Source of the DNA: Escherichia phage vB_EcoM_JNE01 | Reading direction: 5' to 3' (one strand) | Sequence record: OR670491 | Length of the DNA stretch: 64,000 nucleotides | Part shown: positions 46,386-51,348 of the stretch, in pieces | How positions within the stretch are numbered: the first letter of the stretch is position 1 | How the letters are laid out: the number at the start of each line of letters is the position of its first letter | The notes under the pieces: model-generated | The model's input: only the letters and a program-made list of their open reading frames with translations | What the model was told of the DNA's origin: nothing | Databases searched by the model: none | Translations under genes and position numbers: made by a program

Positions 46386-46466
46386 TCACACAATTTATAT
46401 ACACAAATAAATTTGATTTTTAATAATAAATAATCAAAAGTGTTTTGTATTATGGAGAAATATACA

Positions 46467-47033
46467 ATGAACAATTTACTACACATGTTCCAGATTGACG
46501 TAGCAGGTACGAACCTAGACAACATCCCTTACTACAAGTATGAGGACTATGATTCATCTTCCCCTACTACTGCACCAACCGACCAACAAACTATTGATAA
46601 GTCCGTGGCACTACTACGTTACTTACAAGTAACACGTTTGCTATCCACCTATTCTGTACCAGTTTACTACACAATTGAGTTTGCAACCCCAGGAACTGCA
46701 AAGACAATTCCTACTGGTGCAACCCTAAAAGTTGGTTACATTAGCTATGAGCCATTCCTAAGCACTCTAAGTGAAGAAGAATTAGATGCTCTAAACACCG
46801 AAGATCTTAAAACTGCAAAAGCAGCCGAGATCATCAAGGAACTAATCAACAATTCACTAAAAGGTGACGGTACTAATTCTATTGAGAATGAACAAATCAC
46901 TGTACAAAAAACCATCCAACGTGTTAACAACGCACTGGATCGTACCAATGTTGATTTCATTGAACTAGAAAACGTGTACCTAAACGTACCTTCTGTTGCT
47001 GATGCAAGTACTGTAGCTTACATCAAACTATAA
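46467..47033 (+). CDS. hypothetical protein
   Basis: ORF from the ATG at 46467 with GGAG RBS. Confidence 0.5.
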   Translation: MNNLLHMFQIDVAGTNLDNIPYYKYEDYDSSSPTTAPTDQQTIDKSVALLRYLQVTRLLSTYSVPVYYTIEFATPGTAKTIPTGATLKVGYISYEPFLSTLSEEELDALNTEDLKTAKAAEIIKELINNSLKGDGTNSIENEQITVQKTIQRVNNALDRTNVDFIELENVYLNVPSVADASTVAYIKL

Positions 47034-47055
47034 TTTTTTACATGGAGTTCTTGAC

Positions 47056-47250
47056 ATGACTGACAAAACCTTTTATGATCGTATTATTGAAGACAAGGGT
47101 GTGTTTGATAAAGTAATCTATGATTTGGAACTAATGATCAAAGATTCCCCTAACCCACGAATGCGTACACAGGCTGAGTTTGCAAAAACTTACTTAGTTC
47201 AAGTTCAAGCAATTTGTGAAGCGATTAAAAAACATAACGATGGTGCTTGA
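47056..47250 (+). CDS. small hypothetical protein
   Basis: 64-aa ORF; its 3' end overlaps the promoter of the IF3-like gene. Confidence 0.4.
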   Translation: MTDKTFYDRIIEDKGVFDKVIYDLELMIKDSPNPRMRTQAEFAKTYLVQVQAICEAIKKHNDGA

Positions 47251-47275
47251 CATTACCACCATCAAAATATATAAT
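47247..47275 (+). promoter_or_regulatory. consensus sigma70 promoter (TTGACA, 17-bp spacer, TATAAT) with -35 inside a hairpin loop
   Basis: TTGACA at 47247..47252; TATAAT at 47270..47275; GATGGTG / CACCATC inverted repeat flanks the -35. Confidence 0.6.
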
Positions 47276-47319
47276 TATTACCGTAACGAACATTATAAAA
47301 CATTGGAGCTTTTTATTAC

Positions 47320-47820
47320 ATGAAATCTATTATTGCCAACAACGACATTACTGCAAAAACTGTCCGTCTCGTTTCTGAGACTACTGATGTAGTAAGTATT
47401 ACTGTAGCACGTAATATGGCTGATGATCGTGGCTTAGATTTGGTAGTTGTTAAAGAGGGAGATATTCCTGTTGTTAAACTGGTAGACTTGAACAAGTATA
47501 TCTATGAGCAGAAACAAGCAGAAAAGGCCGCTCTTAAGAAACAGCGTCTAAATACTGTTGGTACTAAAGAAATTCAATTCAACTTCGGTACTCAAGAGCA
47601 TGACCTAGCTATTAAAGCTAAGTCTGCTATGAAGTTCTTAGGTGAAGGTAAGCAAGTTCACATTGTAATGAAAGCTGCTGGACGTGGTAACACCCAAGCA
47701 GTTGTACAAAGCAATATTTCCGCACTGGAAGAATTCGTACAACGCTTAGGTAATGTTACCTATGTACAAAAAGTTGAGTTCCAGGGTAAAAAAGTAACCT
47801 GTACTGTCAAAGTAAAATAA
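47320..47820 (+). CDS. infC: translation initiation factor IF3 homolog (N- and C-terminal domains)
   Basis: Collinear with E. coli IF3: DITAKTVRL vs INGEIRAQEVRL; [26 protein letters not shown] vs [27 protein letters not shown]; Lys-rich linker; [33 protein letters not shown] vs [33 protein letters not shown]. Confidence 0.8.
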
Positions 47821-47833
47821 TAAGGACGATTCT

Positions 47834-48379
47834 ATGAAACATACTATCGAACAACAAGTGTTTTCACTTCAGCAGTTCAGCGTAGTGAAAGCATCATATA
47901 AAAATTCTGTTTATTATGTAGCTGGTTTCAATGACATTACTGATTATGTTTTGAAGCTACAACCAGAACATTCTAAAGTAGATAACAAAGTACTTTCCAA
48001 AAGTCTCGCGTTGTTCTTAAGTGAACATCCAGAGAAAAACAAGTTAGCGGTTCCTATGTTTGACTTCATTCTTCTAGATGATCCACAAACATCTGCTGAA
48101 TATGTTGAGTGCGTATGTAGTGAAGTTTTCCATATGTCTTCTGATGAATGTTTAGATGTTATCCATGCACTAAACTCCAAATCAGCAGCATATCATGTTG
48201 GTACATTCACTGATGAAATGTGTATTACATTTTCTTCTATGATTGATCATGGTAATGAGCAACTACGCCAGAATCTTAAGTATGATAAGATTCCTGCACA
48301 ATCCGCTGACAAAGATTACGAATCTGCGTTAGATCTTCTGGAAATCTTGATTCGCAACGATTACCCTGAAGATATCTAA
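47834..48379 (+). CDS. hypothetical protein
   Basis: ORF. Confidence 0.5.
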
Positions 48380-48395
48380 AAAATAATTTACTAAA

Positions 48396-48451
48396 AACTC
48401 CAAGATTAGATATATGATAAATATCTAAAACAAATCTTGGAGTTTTTTTTA
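48396..48451 (+). terminator. long nested hairpin with T-run
   Basis: Perfect 12-bp stem AACTCCAAGATT / AATCTTGGAGTT; inner palindrome AGATAT / ATATCT; followed by TTTTTTTT. Confidence 0.6.
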
Positions 48452-48453
48452 TT

Positions 48454-48999
48454 ATGAATTATGAAGAATTATATAAAGCAATAATGGAAGCCATCGCTCC
48501 TACAGAAGTTGACTCTTCCCATTTGAAGACAATTGAGCACAATGGTAAAGACTTGTATATTACCTTTAAAAATGGTAGTACTTATGAGTATGATGATGTA
48601 CCAGAATCTATGGTAAGACACATGTTAACTGTTGATTCTAAGGGTCGTTTCTTGTGGCGTTATATCCGCGATAAATTCCCATACAGAAAAACAACAACTA
48701 TTTCAACAAAGAAATACGATTCCAACCCAAATGCTATTAAACAGCGTTTACGATACGATGTTGATACTGGTGAATGGGAAGACGCATTGACTCCTGATGT
48801 TATTAAGACGGTTGATATCCCAGTTGGATATGAATTCCGTGCACCTAATAACCAAGATTACGTATTCCAGGGTAAACAGTGGCGTAGTAAGCAAACAGGT
48901 AAGATTGCTCCTAAAGCAATTGGTTCTAAAATATCTGATATTGCAAAACGTTTAATAAAATTAAAAGGAAATGATCAGGAAGGAACCGATGAAATATAA
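48454..48999 (+). CDS. KTSC-domain protein
   Basis: N-terminal [49 protein letters not shown] fits the KTSC pattern. Confidence 0.5.
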
Positions 49000-50560
49000 T
49001 CAATTGCAGGAATCTATTATTAAAGTTCCTCAAAGTACTATGACACAAATTAACAAATACGTGTCTAGTGCTTTGTATTTTAAAATAAAACAATTTATGA
49101 AACAGTACGATCTACAGATGGATGCTGAAACTCGCAATCACCCTGCTGCTGATAAAATCAAAGCTAATGTGATGGCTGAGTGTAACAAAACTCTATCAGT
49201 ACTGAGTTCAAAATATGGAGCTAAAAACATTAGCTCTCAATCGTATAATACAATCGTTAACCAATCTATTAAAATTCCATTTGATGCTGAACAATTCATT
49301 AATGAATTGAATTTTAAGAAACTAGCACCGGAAGTGATTGATGACATTAAAAATACAAAGTTGTCTTTAGCTATTACGAATGATTCCAATACAAGAGAGC
49401 GTGGTTCAATGACCACTCTTGCACAGAATGCATTTGTTATTAAAGTAAACATTAAACTTAATCCAAAAGAAATGTATACTTCAGCATTACAATTAATGAG
49501 TACTGCTTACCATGAAGCACAACACTTTGTTCAAAGTTCTGTAATCAAGAAAATTAATGATAAATCTAATCAGCTACAAGTTAAAAAAGATTATGATAAA
49601 CACGATGCTGGGTACTTTGGTTCTGGTATTGAATATACACCACAAATTGGTAATATCATTGATGCAATGGAAACTGAAGCACAACTGCTAATCGATGACG
49701 GTAAACTACCAGAAGATTCGAAGAAAGCATTTGACCAAGTACTACAACAAGTACTATCCAGAGATGATAAGTATAATGCTCGTACTTTCATTATCAATAT
49801 ATACAAAACGTCACAGAAAAAGTATCGTACTGTAATGTCCACACTGTATAAGCATTTCATGAAAGCATTTGAAAATATGCAAGTAAGTAGTAATGACCAT
49901 GAAGAATCACCTGAAGAAGATTTAGAAGTATCTGTTAATCAGATGAAATCTTTGAGTGATGTTGCTGAGAAATCTCGTTATTTGGAAACTAAATTATATG
50001 GTCATTCCAGAGATGAAATTACAAAAATTGATATGACTAGTCGTGAGAACGGTTGGAATATTATTCTTACTCAACCATCGGCAGAGCGTGATTCGTTCAT
50101 TATGCAATTAAGAAGTGATACCGAGAACGAACGCCAGATTATAAATTTCAAACAAGCCAAAAATATTATTGGTTCAATTTCTAGTATGGATTTCAGTACT
50201 GATGAAGTTGTTGAGTTTGTTGACGAAGTAATGCATATGGATGGTGATGCAGACAAAGCTGCAAATGGTATTATGCGTAAGGTTGAGCAATGGTCTGGTA
50301 TGATTGGCTTGAACTTTGAAAGAACTGAAGATGGATTTAAACTAAACGATACCGAATTTACGGTTGAGCCTTATAGTGGTCGTTTGGTAATATCGTCACC
50401 ACAGTACCCAAATATGTATCTGGTAGGTTCAGAGAAGATGATTACTGATATTATGAAATATATCTTAAGATTCATGAAAGAAAATCCAGAAGCCTTAAGT
50501 AAAGTATTAAATAAAGACATCTCAATTGTACAGATGCGTAGAGAGTTAGGGAGTTTATAA
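48989..50560 (+). CDS. hypothetical protein with HExxH motif
   Basis: [12 protein letters not shown] contains HEAQH; no other metalloprotease signature; start taken at the second Met. Confidence 0.5.
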
Positions 50561-51348
50561 TGCCAAGTAAGAGCAAAAGTCAAGCTAAATTCATGGCGGC
50601 GGCCGCCCACAATCCTGAGTTTGCAAAGAAAGCTGGGATTTCCCAGGATGCAGCAAAGGAGTGGAACAATGCTGACGAGAAAGAAGGTAATTTGAAGAAA
50701 GGTTCCAAGTTGCCTAACAAGGTAAAAGAATCCAGTATGCGTGGTTTGGTTGATATCATTCAAGATGCAGAAATTTCTCAAGACATTGAAGAAACATGTG
50801 ATACAATGGTTGAACCTGAAGATAAAGAAACACTAGAAGAAATGCCACAACGTTTTGATAGTTTCCAAGGACAAGACCGTGATGAGTTCGTTGATAAAAC
50901 TGCTGAACTCACTGGTAAACACAACATGGTTCCATTTGCAAAGCATAAAGATTTTGATGTTATGATGAGTAAAAACGGAACGGGCTTTATTGCTTATGAT
51001 AAGAAAGGTAAGCAGTTGGGTATTGTCAGTGGTCATCTATCTAATGATGCAGTGGTTGGTGTTCGACAAGTGTTTGAGATTGCAGCAACAGCATCTAAAA
51101 CAGGAACAAAAGGTATCATCTACAATATCTTTATGGATATGGTAGCAAATGGTATCGCAGTACTAAGCGACAGCTTACATACTGATGACGCAATTAAATT
51201 CTGGACACGACTAATCGGGTCACATCAGGTTTATATTGTGGGTGGTGGCGAAGTTCTCGCCAAAGCAACTCCAGAGAAAGTACACAAGTACTGGAGTGAT
51301 GATGAAAACAGCCCAAGTGCTGAACTACAATTACTATTAGTAAAATAA
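50560..51348 (+). CDS. hypothetical protein
   Basis: ORF with ATGA overlap; N-terminal SKSQAKFMAAAAHNPEFAKKAG block. Confidence 0.5.
   Translation: MPSKSKSQAKFMAAAAHNPEFAKKAGISQDAAKEWNNADEKEGNLKKGSKLPNKVKESSMRGLVDIIQDAEISQDIEETCDTMVEPEDKETLEEMPQRFDSFQGQDRDEFVDKTAELTGKHNMVPFAKHKDFDVMMSKNGTGFIAYDKKGKQLGIVSGHLSNDAVVGVRQVFEIAATASKTGTKGIIYNIFMDMVANGIAVLSDSLHTDDAIKFWTRLIGSHQVYIVGGGEVLAKATPEKVHKYWSDDENSPSAELQLLLVK

Follow-up and report, generated by a model that had tools for sequence, protein, structure and literature searches.

A predicted mosaic of three transcription units around the IF3 gene of an Asteriusvirus-type jumbo coliphage

Introduction

Phage-encoded IF1/IF3, bS21 and S1 have been reported in huge phages (Al-Shayeb 2020, PMC7162821); bS21 phages have been described by Chen 2022 (PMC9723584), where Clp proteases are merely listed among the bS21 neighbours; and the jumbo-phage survey of Iyer 2021 noted IF3, KTSC and ClpS, each of them, in 'group 2.2' jumbo phages (PMC7824862). 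The IF3 and bS21 proteins of such phages have been proposed to redirect host ribosomes (PMC7162821, PMC9723584, PMC7824862). Here we consider a locus of this kind in Escherichia phage vB_EcoM_JNE01 (sequence record OR670491), namely a block of seven genes (ORF1, ORF2, IF3, ORF4, ORF5, ORF6 and ORF7) at positions 46386-51348 of a 64,000-nucleotide (nt) window, by which we mean the whole stretch of DNA that was analysed. The initial annotation of this block had raised the possibility that it is a translation or host-takeover module.

Two other described systems are close to parts of the locus. In phages CBB and GAP32 ATAAATA is the predicted late promoter, and both encode a gp55-like sigma factor as well; promoters with a TGAAACG-type -35 region are associated with the DNA-synthesis genes of CBB (PMC5259590). 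The polyvalent proteins of phages and conjugative elements, for their part, contain zincin-like metallopeptidase (MPTase) and GNAT modules (Iyer 2017, PMC5512222). Phage translation factors (PMC7162821), phage ClpS (PMC7824862), polyvalent MPTase/GNAT modules (PMC5512222) and T4-like late promoters (PMC5259590) are all already known, and there is no new kind of element in the window, because its gene content is already in GenBank and has partly been discussed in the literature. New here are the split of the block into units, the HExxH family to which ORF6 belongs, the GNAT fold of ORF7 and the divergence of a non-canonical ClpS-like gene, all of which go beyond the deposited annotations, together with a predicted late promoter embedded in a hairpin and a ClpX–IF3–bS21–ClpS cassette. 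Drawing on the identities of the genes, on their motifs, folds and synteny, and on the proteomics published for virions, all of which are documented below, we think it probable, if some way from certain, that three transcription units, set as a mosaic in a T4-like replication region, make up the block: a virion gene, an IF3/ClpS-like pair, and a KTSC-ORF6-ORF7 late virion operon.

Results

The seven + strand open reading frames listed initially between dda and the topoisomerase genes are all present at their coordinates, and promoter, terminator and hairpin signals of different classes lie among them, so that the block splits into what we predict to be three units of different timing, not one module. 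The first unit would run from an ATAAATA late-promoter-like motif (46426-46432; features are on the + strand unless marked otherwise), which is found unchanged at this place in nine lineages, Vibrio phage 2.275.O among them, into ORF1 (46467-47033; 188 amino acids (aa) from its ATG, the mechanical reading frame beginning at a GTG at 46440) and possibly also into ORF2 (47056-47250), which encodes a conserved small protein of 64 aa. The second unit, predicted to be early, would be driven by a strong host-type sigma-70 promoter of consensus sequence, TTGACA-17-TATAAT (47247-47275; 12 of 12 consensus positions), and would comprise IF3 (47320-47820, 166 aa) and, after a spacer of 13 nt, the ClpS-like ORF4 (47834-48379, 181 aa), ending at a conserved nested hairpin that is followed by a T run (48393-48447). 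The third would start from a second ATAAATA late-promoter-like motif in the loop of that hairpin (48417-48423) and contain the KTSC gene ORF5 (48454-48999, 181 aa), ORF6 (48989-50560, 523 aa) and ORF7 (50560-51348, 262 aa); ORF5 and ORF6 overlap by 11 nt, the stop of ORF6 and the start of ORF7 share the sequence TAATG, and an intrinsic terminator lies at 51352-51378. A promoter of predicted middle type (51383-51412; TTGGAA-18-TATAAT with a TG, its -35 region TGAAACG-like) would then open the next unit, that of topoisomerase II, and is conserved in relatives.

The non-coding features by which the block had been delimited were also borne out. The AT-rich spacers have GC fractions of 0.17 (dda-ORF1), 0.26 (ORF2-IF3) and 0.18 (ORF4-ORF5), against 0.37 for the window; the large nested hairpin, with arms of 22 nt, is that at 48393-48447; and the terminator/promoter pair consists of the two signals after ORF7, the terminator having a 12-pair stem and a T run and being conserved, with changes in its stem, in relatives.

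The perfect TTGACA-N17-TATAAT promoter is the single such site in the 64 kb (0.07 expected) and lies 45 nt upstream of IF3, and hexamers of TTGACA/TATAAT type are found at the equivalent place in Ecwhy_1, phAPEC6, CBB, BF and 7t3. The ATAAATA motif occurs 13 times in the window where 25.7 copies are expected, that is, at about half the expected number. Twelve of these copies (1267, 1613, 8615, 11293(-), 11356(-), 16327, 26875, 26910(-), 31381, 46426, 48417 and 54925) stand, correctly oriented, a short way upstream of gene starts, almost only 15-50 nt away, with the extended form NATAAATAWY; among them are those that precede ORF1, ORF5 and the gene of a 797-aa virion protein after topoisomerase. 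To judge by this distribution, the motif has the character of a late-promoter signal used throughout the genome and kept out of the genes themselves. As a separate observation, there is a near-consensus sigma-70 site at 47051-47079 (TTGACA-17-TATGAT, 11 of 12 positions), whose -35 element overlaps the start of ORF2 and from which a transcript would begin inside ORF2 and run towards IF3.

In T4, genes e, soc, 49 and I-TevI have a late promoter inside a hairpin, with the result that only their late transcripts are translatable, a form of control reportedly described by McPheeters in 1986 and by Gott and by Barth in 1988. The hairpin at 48393-48447 is similar: a TATAAATA-like late-promoter motif lies within it, and its 3′ arm, which pairs over the Shine-Dalgarno sequence of the downstream gene, holds the GGAG of the ORF5 ribosome-binding site 11 nt before the ATG. 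As RNA it has a minimum free energy of -21.9 kcal/mol (z = -6.0), and none of 200 shuffled sequences folded equally well. Across eight aligned phages its stem has 13 conserved pairs, three of them with compensatory changes, and in the loop ATAAATA is invariant in all eight and the preceding G in seven, the remainder of the loop being variable. A late transcript starting a few nt past 48423 would lack the 5′ arm, so that the KTSC ribosome-binding site would be free in it, and early read-through RNA would keep that site paired. The hairpin differs from those of T4 in also resembling an intrinsic terminator, that of the upstream early IF3-ORF4 unit, and in being known here from sequence alone.

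The gene at 47320-47820 encodes a complete two-domain IF3. Its product matches Pfam IF3_N (1.6e-16) and IF3_C (4.9e-12), both over cutoff, scores 98.9 bits against a cutoff of 60 with the NCBIfam infC equivalog TIGR00168, and aligns over its full length with E. coli IF3 at 31% identity, its basic Lys-rich linker aligning with the E. coli linker. Among the E. coli IF3 residues which we take to serve 30S binding and start-codon fidelity (R99, D106, Y107, K110, R112, R116, R129, R131 and R133), D106, K110 and R133 are kept, R112, R116 and R129 are replaced by K, and the others are changed (R99N, Y107L and R131A), a pattern common to the phage clade. The two domains, the linker and the equivalog score are those of a bacterial infC; the absence of the first ~10 residues, the changes R99N, Y107L and R131A and a position outside any thrS–infC–rpmI–rplT operon are not. 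The phage gene also starts with ATG, unlike that of E. coli, where the AUU start codon is used for autoregulation. The phage IF3 would presumably bind host 30S subunits and bias or sustain initiation on phage mRNAs.

The seven-gene order is kept throughout the 29 Rak2-like loci examined (Asterius-, Eneladus-, Mimas-, Alcyoneus- and Munch-like), except that RaK2 is without ORF6. The Vibrio phage 2.275.O, whose IF3 is 40% identical, has ORF1–ORF2–IF3–ClpS–KTSC between helicase and topoisomerase genes, without ORF6 and ORF7, and carries an S21 gene between IF3 and a short canonical ClpS; in Atu_ph07 and Phosso a ClpX gene lies directly upstream of IF3. A profile of phage IF3, run against IMG/VR, brought up 31 more loci, which fall into 12 IF3 clusters (L113-L143, contigs up to 331 kb), and with Atu_ph07 and Phosso the non-Rak2-like clusters number 14, at 30-58% mutual identity. 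IF3 adjoins Clp-system genes in 12 of these 14 lineages, the other two having no Clp gene within the stretch examined. ClpX is immediately upstream and ClpS downstream of IF3 in 24 of the 31 IMG/VR loci; in most of these bS21 directly follows IF3, with ClpS another 0.3-1.5 kb along, and in many ClpP lies 3-5 kb upstream. Three more of the 31 show IF3–S21–…–ClpS with no ClpX, which brings the loci with such an arrangement to 27. Counted by lineage, ClpS lies 0.3-1.5 kb downstream of IF3 in nine others, and in seven lineages bS21 stands precisely between the two. The full ClpP/ClpX–IF3–bS21–ClpS set is found in loci L115, L125, L128, L130 and L138; Pfam confirmed the cassette genes in L138 and L121. 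Since none of the 31 loci holds ORF1, ORF2, KTSC, ORF6 or ORF7, IF3 co-occurs with Clp components and bS21 and not with the virion genes. (Of the query sequences, which were those of E. coli ClpS, ClpP, IF3, L35 and L20, that of ClpS agrees with the PDB alignment; ClpP and ClpX of L138 were re-checked with Pfam.)

The JNE01 locus shares with these cassettes a ClpS-family gene immediately after IF3, on the same strand and at a spacing of 13 nt, and departs from the full arrangement in having ORF1 and ORF2 upstream of IF3 and no gene between IF3 and ORF4. Its IF3–ClpS-like pair is probably what is left of an ancient cassette of phages, ClpP…ClpX–IF3–bS21–ClpS, that would couple 30S initiation components with Clp proteolysis; IF3 and Clp may also be linked physically. 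In the literature searched we found no description of the ordered ClpX–IF3–bS21–ClpS cassette, or of an IF3–ClpS pair as its remnant. Among uncultivated large phages the compact same-strand order ClpP…ClpX–IF3–bS21–ClpS (e.g. L138:1519-7118) was seen in no fewer than nine divergent lineages, set among genes that are otherwise unrelated (in L138, SNase, GATase, cytidylyltransferase, IMPDH/GMP reductase family and DNA ligase). An IF3 filed under 'Acinetobacter phage MD-2021a' (L093, CAKLQF020000017.1) was excluded: it stands in a bacterial thrS–infC–…–rpmI–rplT–pheS order with panC, fadD and other genes, and the record has the look of bacterial chromosome deposited under a phage name.

A profile of seven phage ORF4 homologs, searched against the PDB, matched E. 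coli ClpS at 1e-9 over residues 68-142, and only ClpS chains were matched; for this reason we rejected the reading of ORF4 as like the C-terminal domain of ribosomal bL12, which an InterPro label on the Vibrio phage gene would suggest. ORF4 has a conserved 73-aa N-terminal extension, a ClpS core at ~68-142 and a conserved C-terminal LIRxDYPxDI tail, and is by its sequence a divergent ClpS-domain protein. Like the ClpS N-recognin adaptor of ClpAP it has a core recognisable by profile and retains D35, T38 and E79 (E. coli numbering); unlike ClpS it is 181 aa long, not ~100, and its N-extension is conserved and structured-looking, not short and flexible. At N34, D35, T38, M40 and H66, which we take to form the N-degron pocket of ClpS, ORF4 has D, D, T, A and N, and at E79, E82 and K84, presumably the contacts of ClpS with the ClpA N-domain, it has E, I and F. 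In the ~100-aa ClpS proteins of nine other IF3-phage lineages, by comparison, N34, D35, T38, M40 (Q in one) and H66 are kept and position 36 is D, E or N; the ClpA-contact residues E79, E82 and K84 are likewise kept in the cassette ClpS of other phages. ORF4 would presumably act on host ClpA/ClpAP or on a new partner.

ORF5, the first gene of the predicted late operon, encodes a KTSC domain (residues 21-75; Pfam PF13619, 6.9e-14, 51.8 bits against a cutoff of 25) followed by a 100-aa C-terminal region, and matches the KTSC protein of PDB 7x8c at 5e-12. No other gene of the block is as well conserved: its identity to the CBB and BF homologs is 66-71%, as against 50-54% for IF3. We considered KTSC as a marker of a translation module and rejected it, since 61 other viral contigs with KTSC-only proteins have no IF3 or ClpS within 7 kb. 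In predicted restriction systems, HerA-like ATPases are described as having KTSC proteins for DNA-binding partners (PMC9503650), and a KTSC domain is seen at the C-terminus of a solved HerA-type ATPase (PDB 8wiv); because of both, the domain is not specific to translation. We suggest that ORF5 is a small nucleic-acid-binding KTSC protein of the late operon.

ORF6 consists of an N-terminal HExxH…E module of ~300 aa and C-terminal alpha/beta domains. The HEAQH motif pointed out initially is present (49511-49525), and H175, E176, H179 and E215, the last being the putative third ligand (49631-49633), do not vary among 27 homologs with identities as low as 26%, or among 30 remote relatives, a degree of conservation beyond chance. 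The AlphaFold2 model (pLDDT 85.9) has a helix at 114-121, strands at 124-130, 139-145 and 148-154, the HExxH helix at 159-189 and E215 at the start of a helix at 213-236. As the zincin-like MPTase core is defined by an N-terminal helix and a three-stranded sheet before the HExxH helix (PMC5512222), the modelled order of secondary-structure elements agrees with that of a zincin core, with HExxH on a helix, the Glu on the next conserved helix, and the three strands and the preceding helix in place; ORF6 may on this model be a zincin-like peptidase. An exhaustive profile search led to a family of ~280-aa phage proteins with the motifs EG(L/I)IKVP, HE(L)xH.VQ and Y..S.(I/V)E(F/Y).PQIG, which hhalign aligned to the first ~300 residues of ORF6 with 99.8% probability. 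H, E, H, Y and E are the sole invariant residues of this family, at ~20% identity, and members are fused to Acb1 (an anti-CBASS phosphodiesterase) or to ART-PolyVal. Comparison of the family with Pfam MPTase models and with solved zincin structures gave no match.

Among the remote relatives of the ORF6 module, P0183, P0184, P0198 and P0201 were noted, with fusions to Acb1 and ART-PolyVal; P0201 has a GNAT-like RGQGRAKEAL motif upstream of the HExxH module. The module also follows another conserved N-terminal peptide, …DLSERAPxSNKGQRFL…WKRVLYATAWKMFG.

ORF7 is composed of a helical motif (residues 1-49), a disordered linker (47-101) that holds a conserved V-K-E|SSMR site, and a C-terminal domain (~102-262) that has the GNAT fold. 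The beta4-alpha3 loop of this domain reads SKTGTKG, with only K184-G185 invariant, and does not contain the acyl-CoA motif A (Q/RxxGxG/A); nor did ORF7 match any Pfam acetyltransferase or, by sequence, any PDB entry. In BF, CBB and 7t3, which represent sister genera, the ORF7 homologs are 810-878 aa long; a further HExxH module, resembling that of ORF6, is interposed there between N-terminal motif and GNAT domain. The N-terminal motif itself, MPSKSKxQAxFMAAAAHNPEFAKKxGIS…AKEWN (50560-50706), recurs at 65-78% identity in ~90 otherwise unrelated small metagenomic proteins of 145-390 aa (P0081-P0149); it corresponds to no Pfam family, and a scan of ten of the unrelated proteins that share it gave no Pfam domain in any of them. 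The motif may serve as a tag for packaging or for targeting. L144, one of its occurrences, is located within a run of large same-strand genes on a 66-kb contig, a context that is uninformative.

Published virion mass spectrometry places homologs of several products of the block with the particle. In phAPEC6 the ORF1 homolog gp167c (20.66 kDa) was detected with 4 peptides, the ORF6 homolog gp162c with 10 and the ORF7 homolog gp161c with 6; in CBB the KTSC homolog CBB_320 was detected with 4 peptides (37% coverage) and the ORF7 homolog CBB_322 with 30. The late operon would in our view supply virion-associated proteins that are probably packaged and possibly delivered into the host. Its HExxH and GNAT modules resemble those of polyvalent effectors, which are packaged and delivered with phage DNA: the module types are those of polyvalent proteins (Iyer 2017, PMC5512222), relatives of the ORF6 module are fused to ART-PolyVal or Acb1, and in BF, CBB and 7t3 both modules are on a single chain. 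They differ in being split here over ORF6 and ORF7 and in having no adjoining portal or MuF genes. Enzymatic activity of ORF6 and ORF7, like delivery into the host, is what this resemblance would predict.

ORF1, by the same proteomics, is a virion-associated protein of unassigned function. It matches phrog_16501 (5e-84), a family without known function, is homologous to the gene at the equivalent position of Vibrio phage 2.275.O (BLASTP 1e-16) and has no PDB relative by profile search. ORF2 matches phrog_15132 (2.6e-36), likewise without known function, and is syntenic in all relatives, with a pairwise E-value of 1e-4 to the Vibrio phage 2.275.O gene. The description of the block as uncharacterised is correct in part: ORF4 is a ClpS-domain protein, several genes are annotated in relatives, and homologs of several products are found in virion mass spectrometry. 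The search for remote homology and structure that had been called for yielded the ClpS, KTSC, HExxH…E and GNAT assignments and, for ORF1 and ORF2, the PHROG families alone.

Discussion

That all seven genes form one IF3-centred translation or host-takeover module, with the HExxH protein cleaving translation factors, seems to us very improbable. The seven genes are collinear in 29 Rak2-like loci of several genera, and ORF1, ORF2, IF3, ClpS and KTSC stay together even in the distant Vibrio phage 2.275.O; KTSC, moreover, is named after the lysyl-tRNA synthetase C-terminal domain and has been suggested to support phage translation (PMC7824862). However, the internal promoter, terminator and hairpin signals are of different classes; ORF1, ORF6, ORF7 and, in CBB, KTSC are virion-associated; ORF6 is absent from RaK2 and from Vibrio phage 2.275.O, and ORF7 from the latter, although IF3 is present in both; ORF1, ORF2, KTSC, ORF6 and ORF7 do not stand beside IF3 in the 31 non-Rak2-like IMG/VR loci; and KTSC-only genes occur elsewhere, away from IF3, the domain being also found on HerA-type ATPases and described as DNA-binding. 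Nor did any of the tests made connect the HExxH protein to translation factors. Of the module proposed in the initial annotation there survives the IF3–ORF4 pair, with its 13-nt spacer, the sole perfect sigma-70 promoter and the Clp adjacency of 12 of 14 lineages; the co-occurrence that was looked for was likewise found across divergent phages for IF3 with Clp genes and bS21, and not for IF3 with the virion genes. The opposite view, that there is no functional link at all, IF3 and ClpS being independent auxiliary genes that are co-inherited and ORF1 and ORF5-7 ordinary, non-enzymatic structural or inner-body parts, we consider rather unlikely, though less so than the single module. The synteny is largely clade-wide and could be vertical, the phAPEC6 report (PMC7247149) describes an inner body in the capsid with unassigned components, ORF6 gave no structural match to any enzyme and ORF7 is without a clear acetyl-CoA motif. 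Yet the adjacency of IF3 and Clp genes persists at 30-40% IF3 identity, where the Clp partner changes (ClpS; ClpX; ClpX+ClpS+ClpP) and the flanking genes are unrelated, and bS21 is inserted exactly between IF3 and ClpS in seven lineages; the HExxH, Y and E of the ORF6 family are its sole invariant residues at ~20% identity, as is typical of catalytic sites, and the fusion partners of relatives of the module are known anti-defence enzymes. A bolder possibility, which we rate as quite unlikely at present, is that phages of this kind degrade and replace: phage ClpX/ClpP/ClpS would remove host 30S factors (IF3, bS21 or hibernation factors competing with IF3), and phage IF3 and bS21 would substitute for them, re-awakening or re-specifying ribosomes for phage mRNAs, with the Rak2-like IF3–ClpS pair as a remnant in which the ClpS-like protein has been re-tooled, by a new pocket and a new N-domain, for one specific host target. 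A precedent from cells exists: in mycobacteria the hibernation-promoting factor Mrf, which binds 30S, is degraded in a manner that depends on ClpS (PMC7431043).

Within the three-unit reading, the roles of ORF4 and ORF6 each have an alternative which we hold to be possible, if the less probable one. ORF4 might be a neofunctionalised ClpS fold that is no adaptor at all and instead serves as a decoy or inhibitor of host ClpA, or binds another target through its N-domain, and so protects phage proteins. The ClpS of the cassettes elsewhere is short and canonical, and the Rak2-like ORF4 has six substitutions, the 73-aa N-domain and the LIRxDYPxDI tail; these phages reportedly carry ClpS 'instead' of ClpP (PMC7824862), so that its target has to be either the machinery of the host or something different. 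On the other side, E79, T38, D35 and the core of ORF4 are retained, which leaves room for residual binding of ClpA or of N-degrons. For the HExxH module of ORF6, the alternative to an anti-host effector is a peptidase of virion maturation or of self-processing, which would trim packaged proteins, for instance to free the GNAT domain, and we give it about the same modest weight. MPTase domains in polyvalent proteins have been argued mostly to process their own polyprotein (PMC5512222). In BF, CBB and 7t3 the HExxH module sits between the N-terminal motif and the GNAT domain, and the disordered linker of ORF7 holds the conserved V-K-E|SSMR site. But in JNE01 ORF6 and ORF7 are separate genes, and an x-x-E|S site resembles what we presume to be the cleavage specificity of the T4-type prohead serine protease; because these phages also encode such a protease (it is listed in phAPEC6 as gp227c), a second one is not required.

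Several points weigh against the mosaic of three units as we have drawn it. The timing is read from motifs only, no transcriptome of any Asteriusvirus or Rak2-like relative having been found, and no terminator was found between ORF1/ORF2 and IF3, so that late read-through into IF3 is possible and the units are perhaps not cleanly separated. As a single sequence, ORF4 scores 18.9 bits with Pfam ClpS, under the cutoff of 23, and 16 with the NCBIfam ClpS equivalog, whose cutoff is 149; it has the pocket substitutions N34D, D36P, M40A and H66N and the ClpA-contact substitutions E82I and K84F, and because both sets of residues are altered and an extra domain is present, a classical adaptor role is doubtful. 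ORF6 is without a Pfam match or a PDB sequence match, and a PDB search with the profile of its ~280-aa family was likewise empty. All sampled IF3s, moreover, were retrieved with patterns derived from the Rak2-like clade and probably belong to one phage IF3 family; for this reason the signal is one of conserved synteny over deep divergence, not of independent reinvention, and the IF3–Clp synteny may reflect common descent and not a functional link. Lastly, the virion list of phAPEC6 also contains topoisomerase, RecA, SSB and thymidylate synthase, and detection there is for that reason suggestive of packaging and no proof of it.

A block that is probably not one IF3-centred module matters in part as a guard against over-reading virion proteins. 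The persistent linkage of phage IF3, Clp and bS21 genes offers a testable hypothesis, that of a translation takeover by huge phages through proteolysis coupled to replacement of 30S components, and the cassette hypothesis, if confirmed, would merit much more interest. ORF6 defines a widespread HExxH…E phage family that has so far been without annotation and is tied to known anti-defence domains. This family and the doubtful 'ClpS adaptor' label also matter for annotating therapeutic jumbo coliphages.

Additional observations

The region 46386-51348 is 98.1% identical in DNA to Escherichia phage Turkey5 and ~79% identical to PBECO4, 121Q, phAPEC6 and ~35 other Asteriusvirus-type coliphages and Salmonella phages of ~350 kb; the source phage is an Asteriusvirus-type jumbo coliphage. 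Equivalent genes, in the same order between dda and topoisomerase II, are present in the Asteriusvirus and Rak2-like genomes (Turkey5, PBECO4, 121Q and phAPEC6; CBB, GAP32, BF and RaK2). Upstream, the surroundings are those of T4-like replication and nucleotide metabolism (DNA polymerase, clamp, SSB, RecA, UvsY, primase/helicase, RNR, DHFR, RNase H and Dda), and the topoisomerase II genes are the downstream neighbours of the block.

The whole seven-gene block is annotated in 41 deposited phage genomes. Labels already deposited for relatives include IF3, ClpS or 'protease adapter', KTSC (or, wrongly, 'DnaJ-like') and 'virion structural protein', and they disagree among relatives, with 'DnaJ-like', 'DNA polymerase III', 'DNA gyrase subunit A' and 'ATP-dependent protease' all in use. 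We set aside 'DnaJ-like' for ORF5, which has no DnaJ match in Pfam, and also the 'DNA polymerase III' and 'DNA gyrase subunit A' labels of some records, which are without Pfam support. The PA5oct paper makes no mention of IF3 or of late promoter motifs.

The coordinates of the window and of Turkey5 (L145) coincide from ~41 kb on and are offset by ~1.5 kb upstream of it, the DNA polymerase gene, for example, being at 4319-7327 in the window and at 5880-8888 in Turkey5; because of this offset there must be at least one insertion or deletion upstream between the two phages. In RaK2 (L008, 11689-13398 and 4156-4740) a homing endonuclease gene lies between the genes of the two topoisomerase II subunits, and a Mom-like DNA modification gene replaces RNase H.

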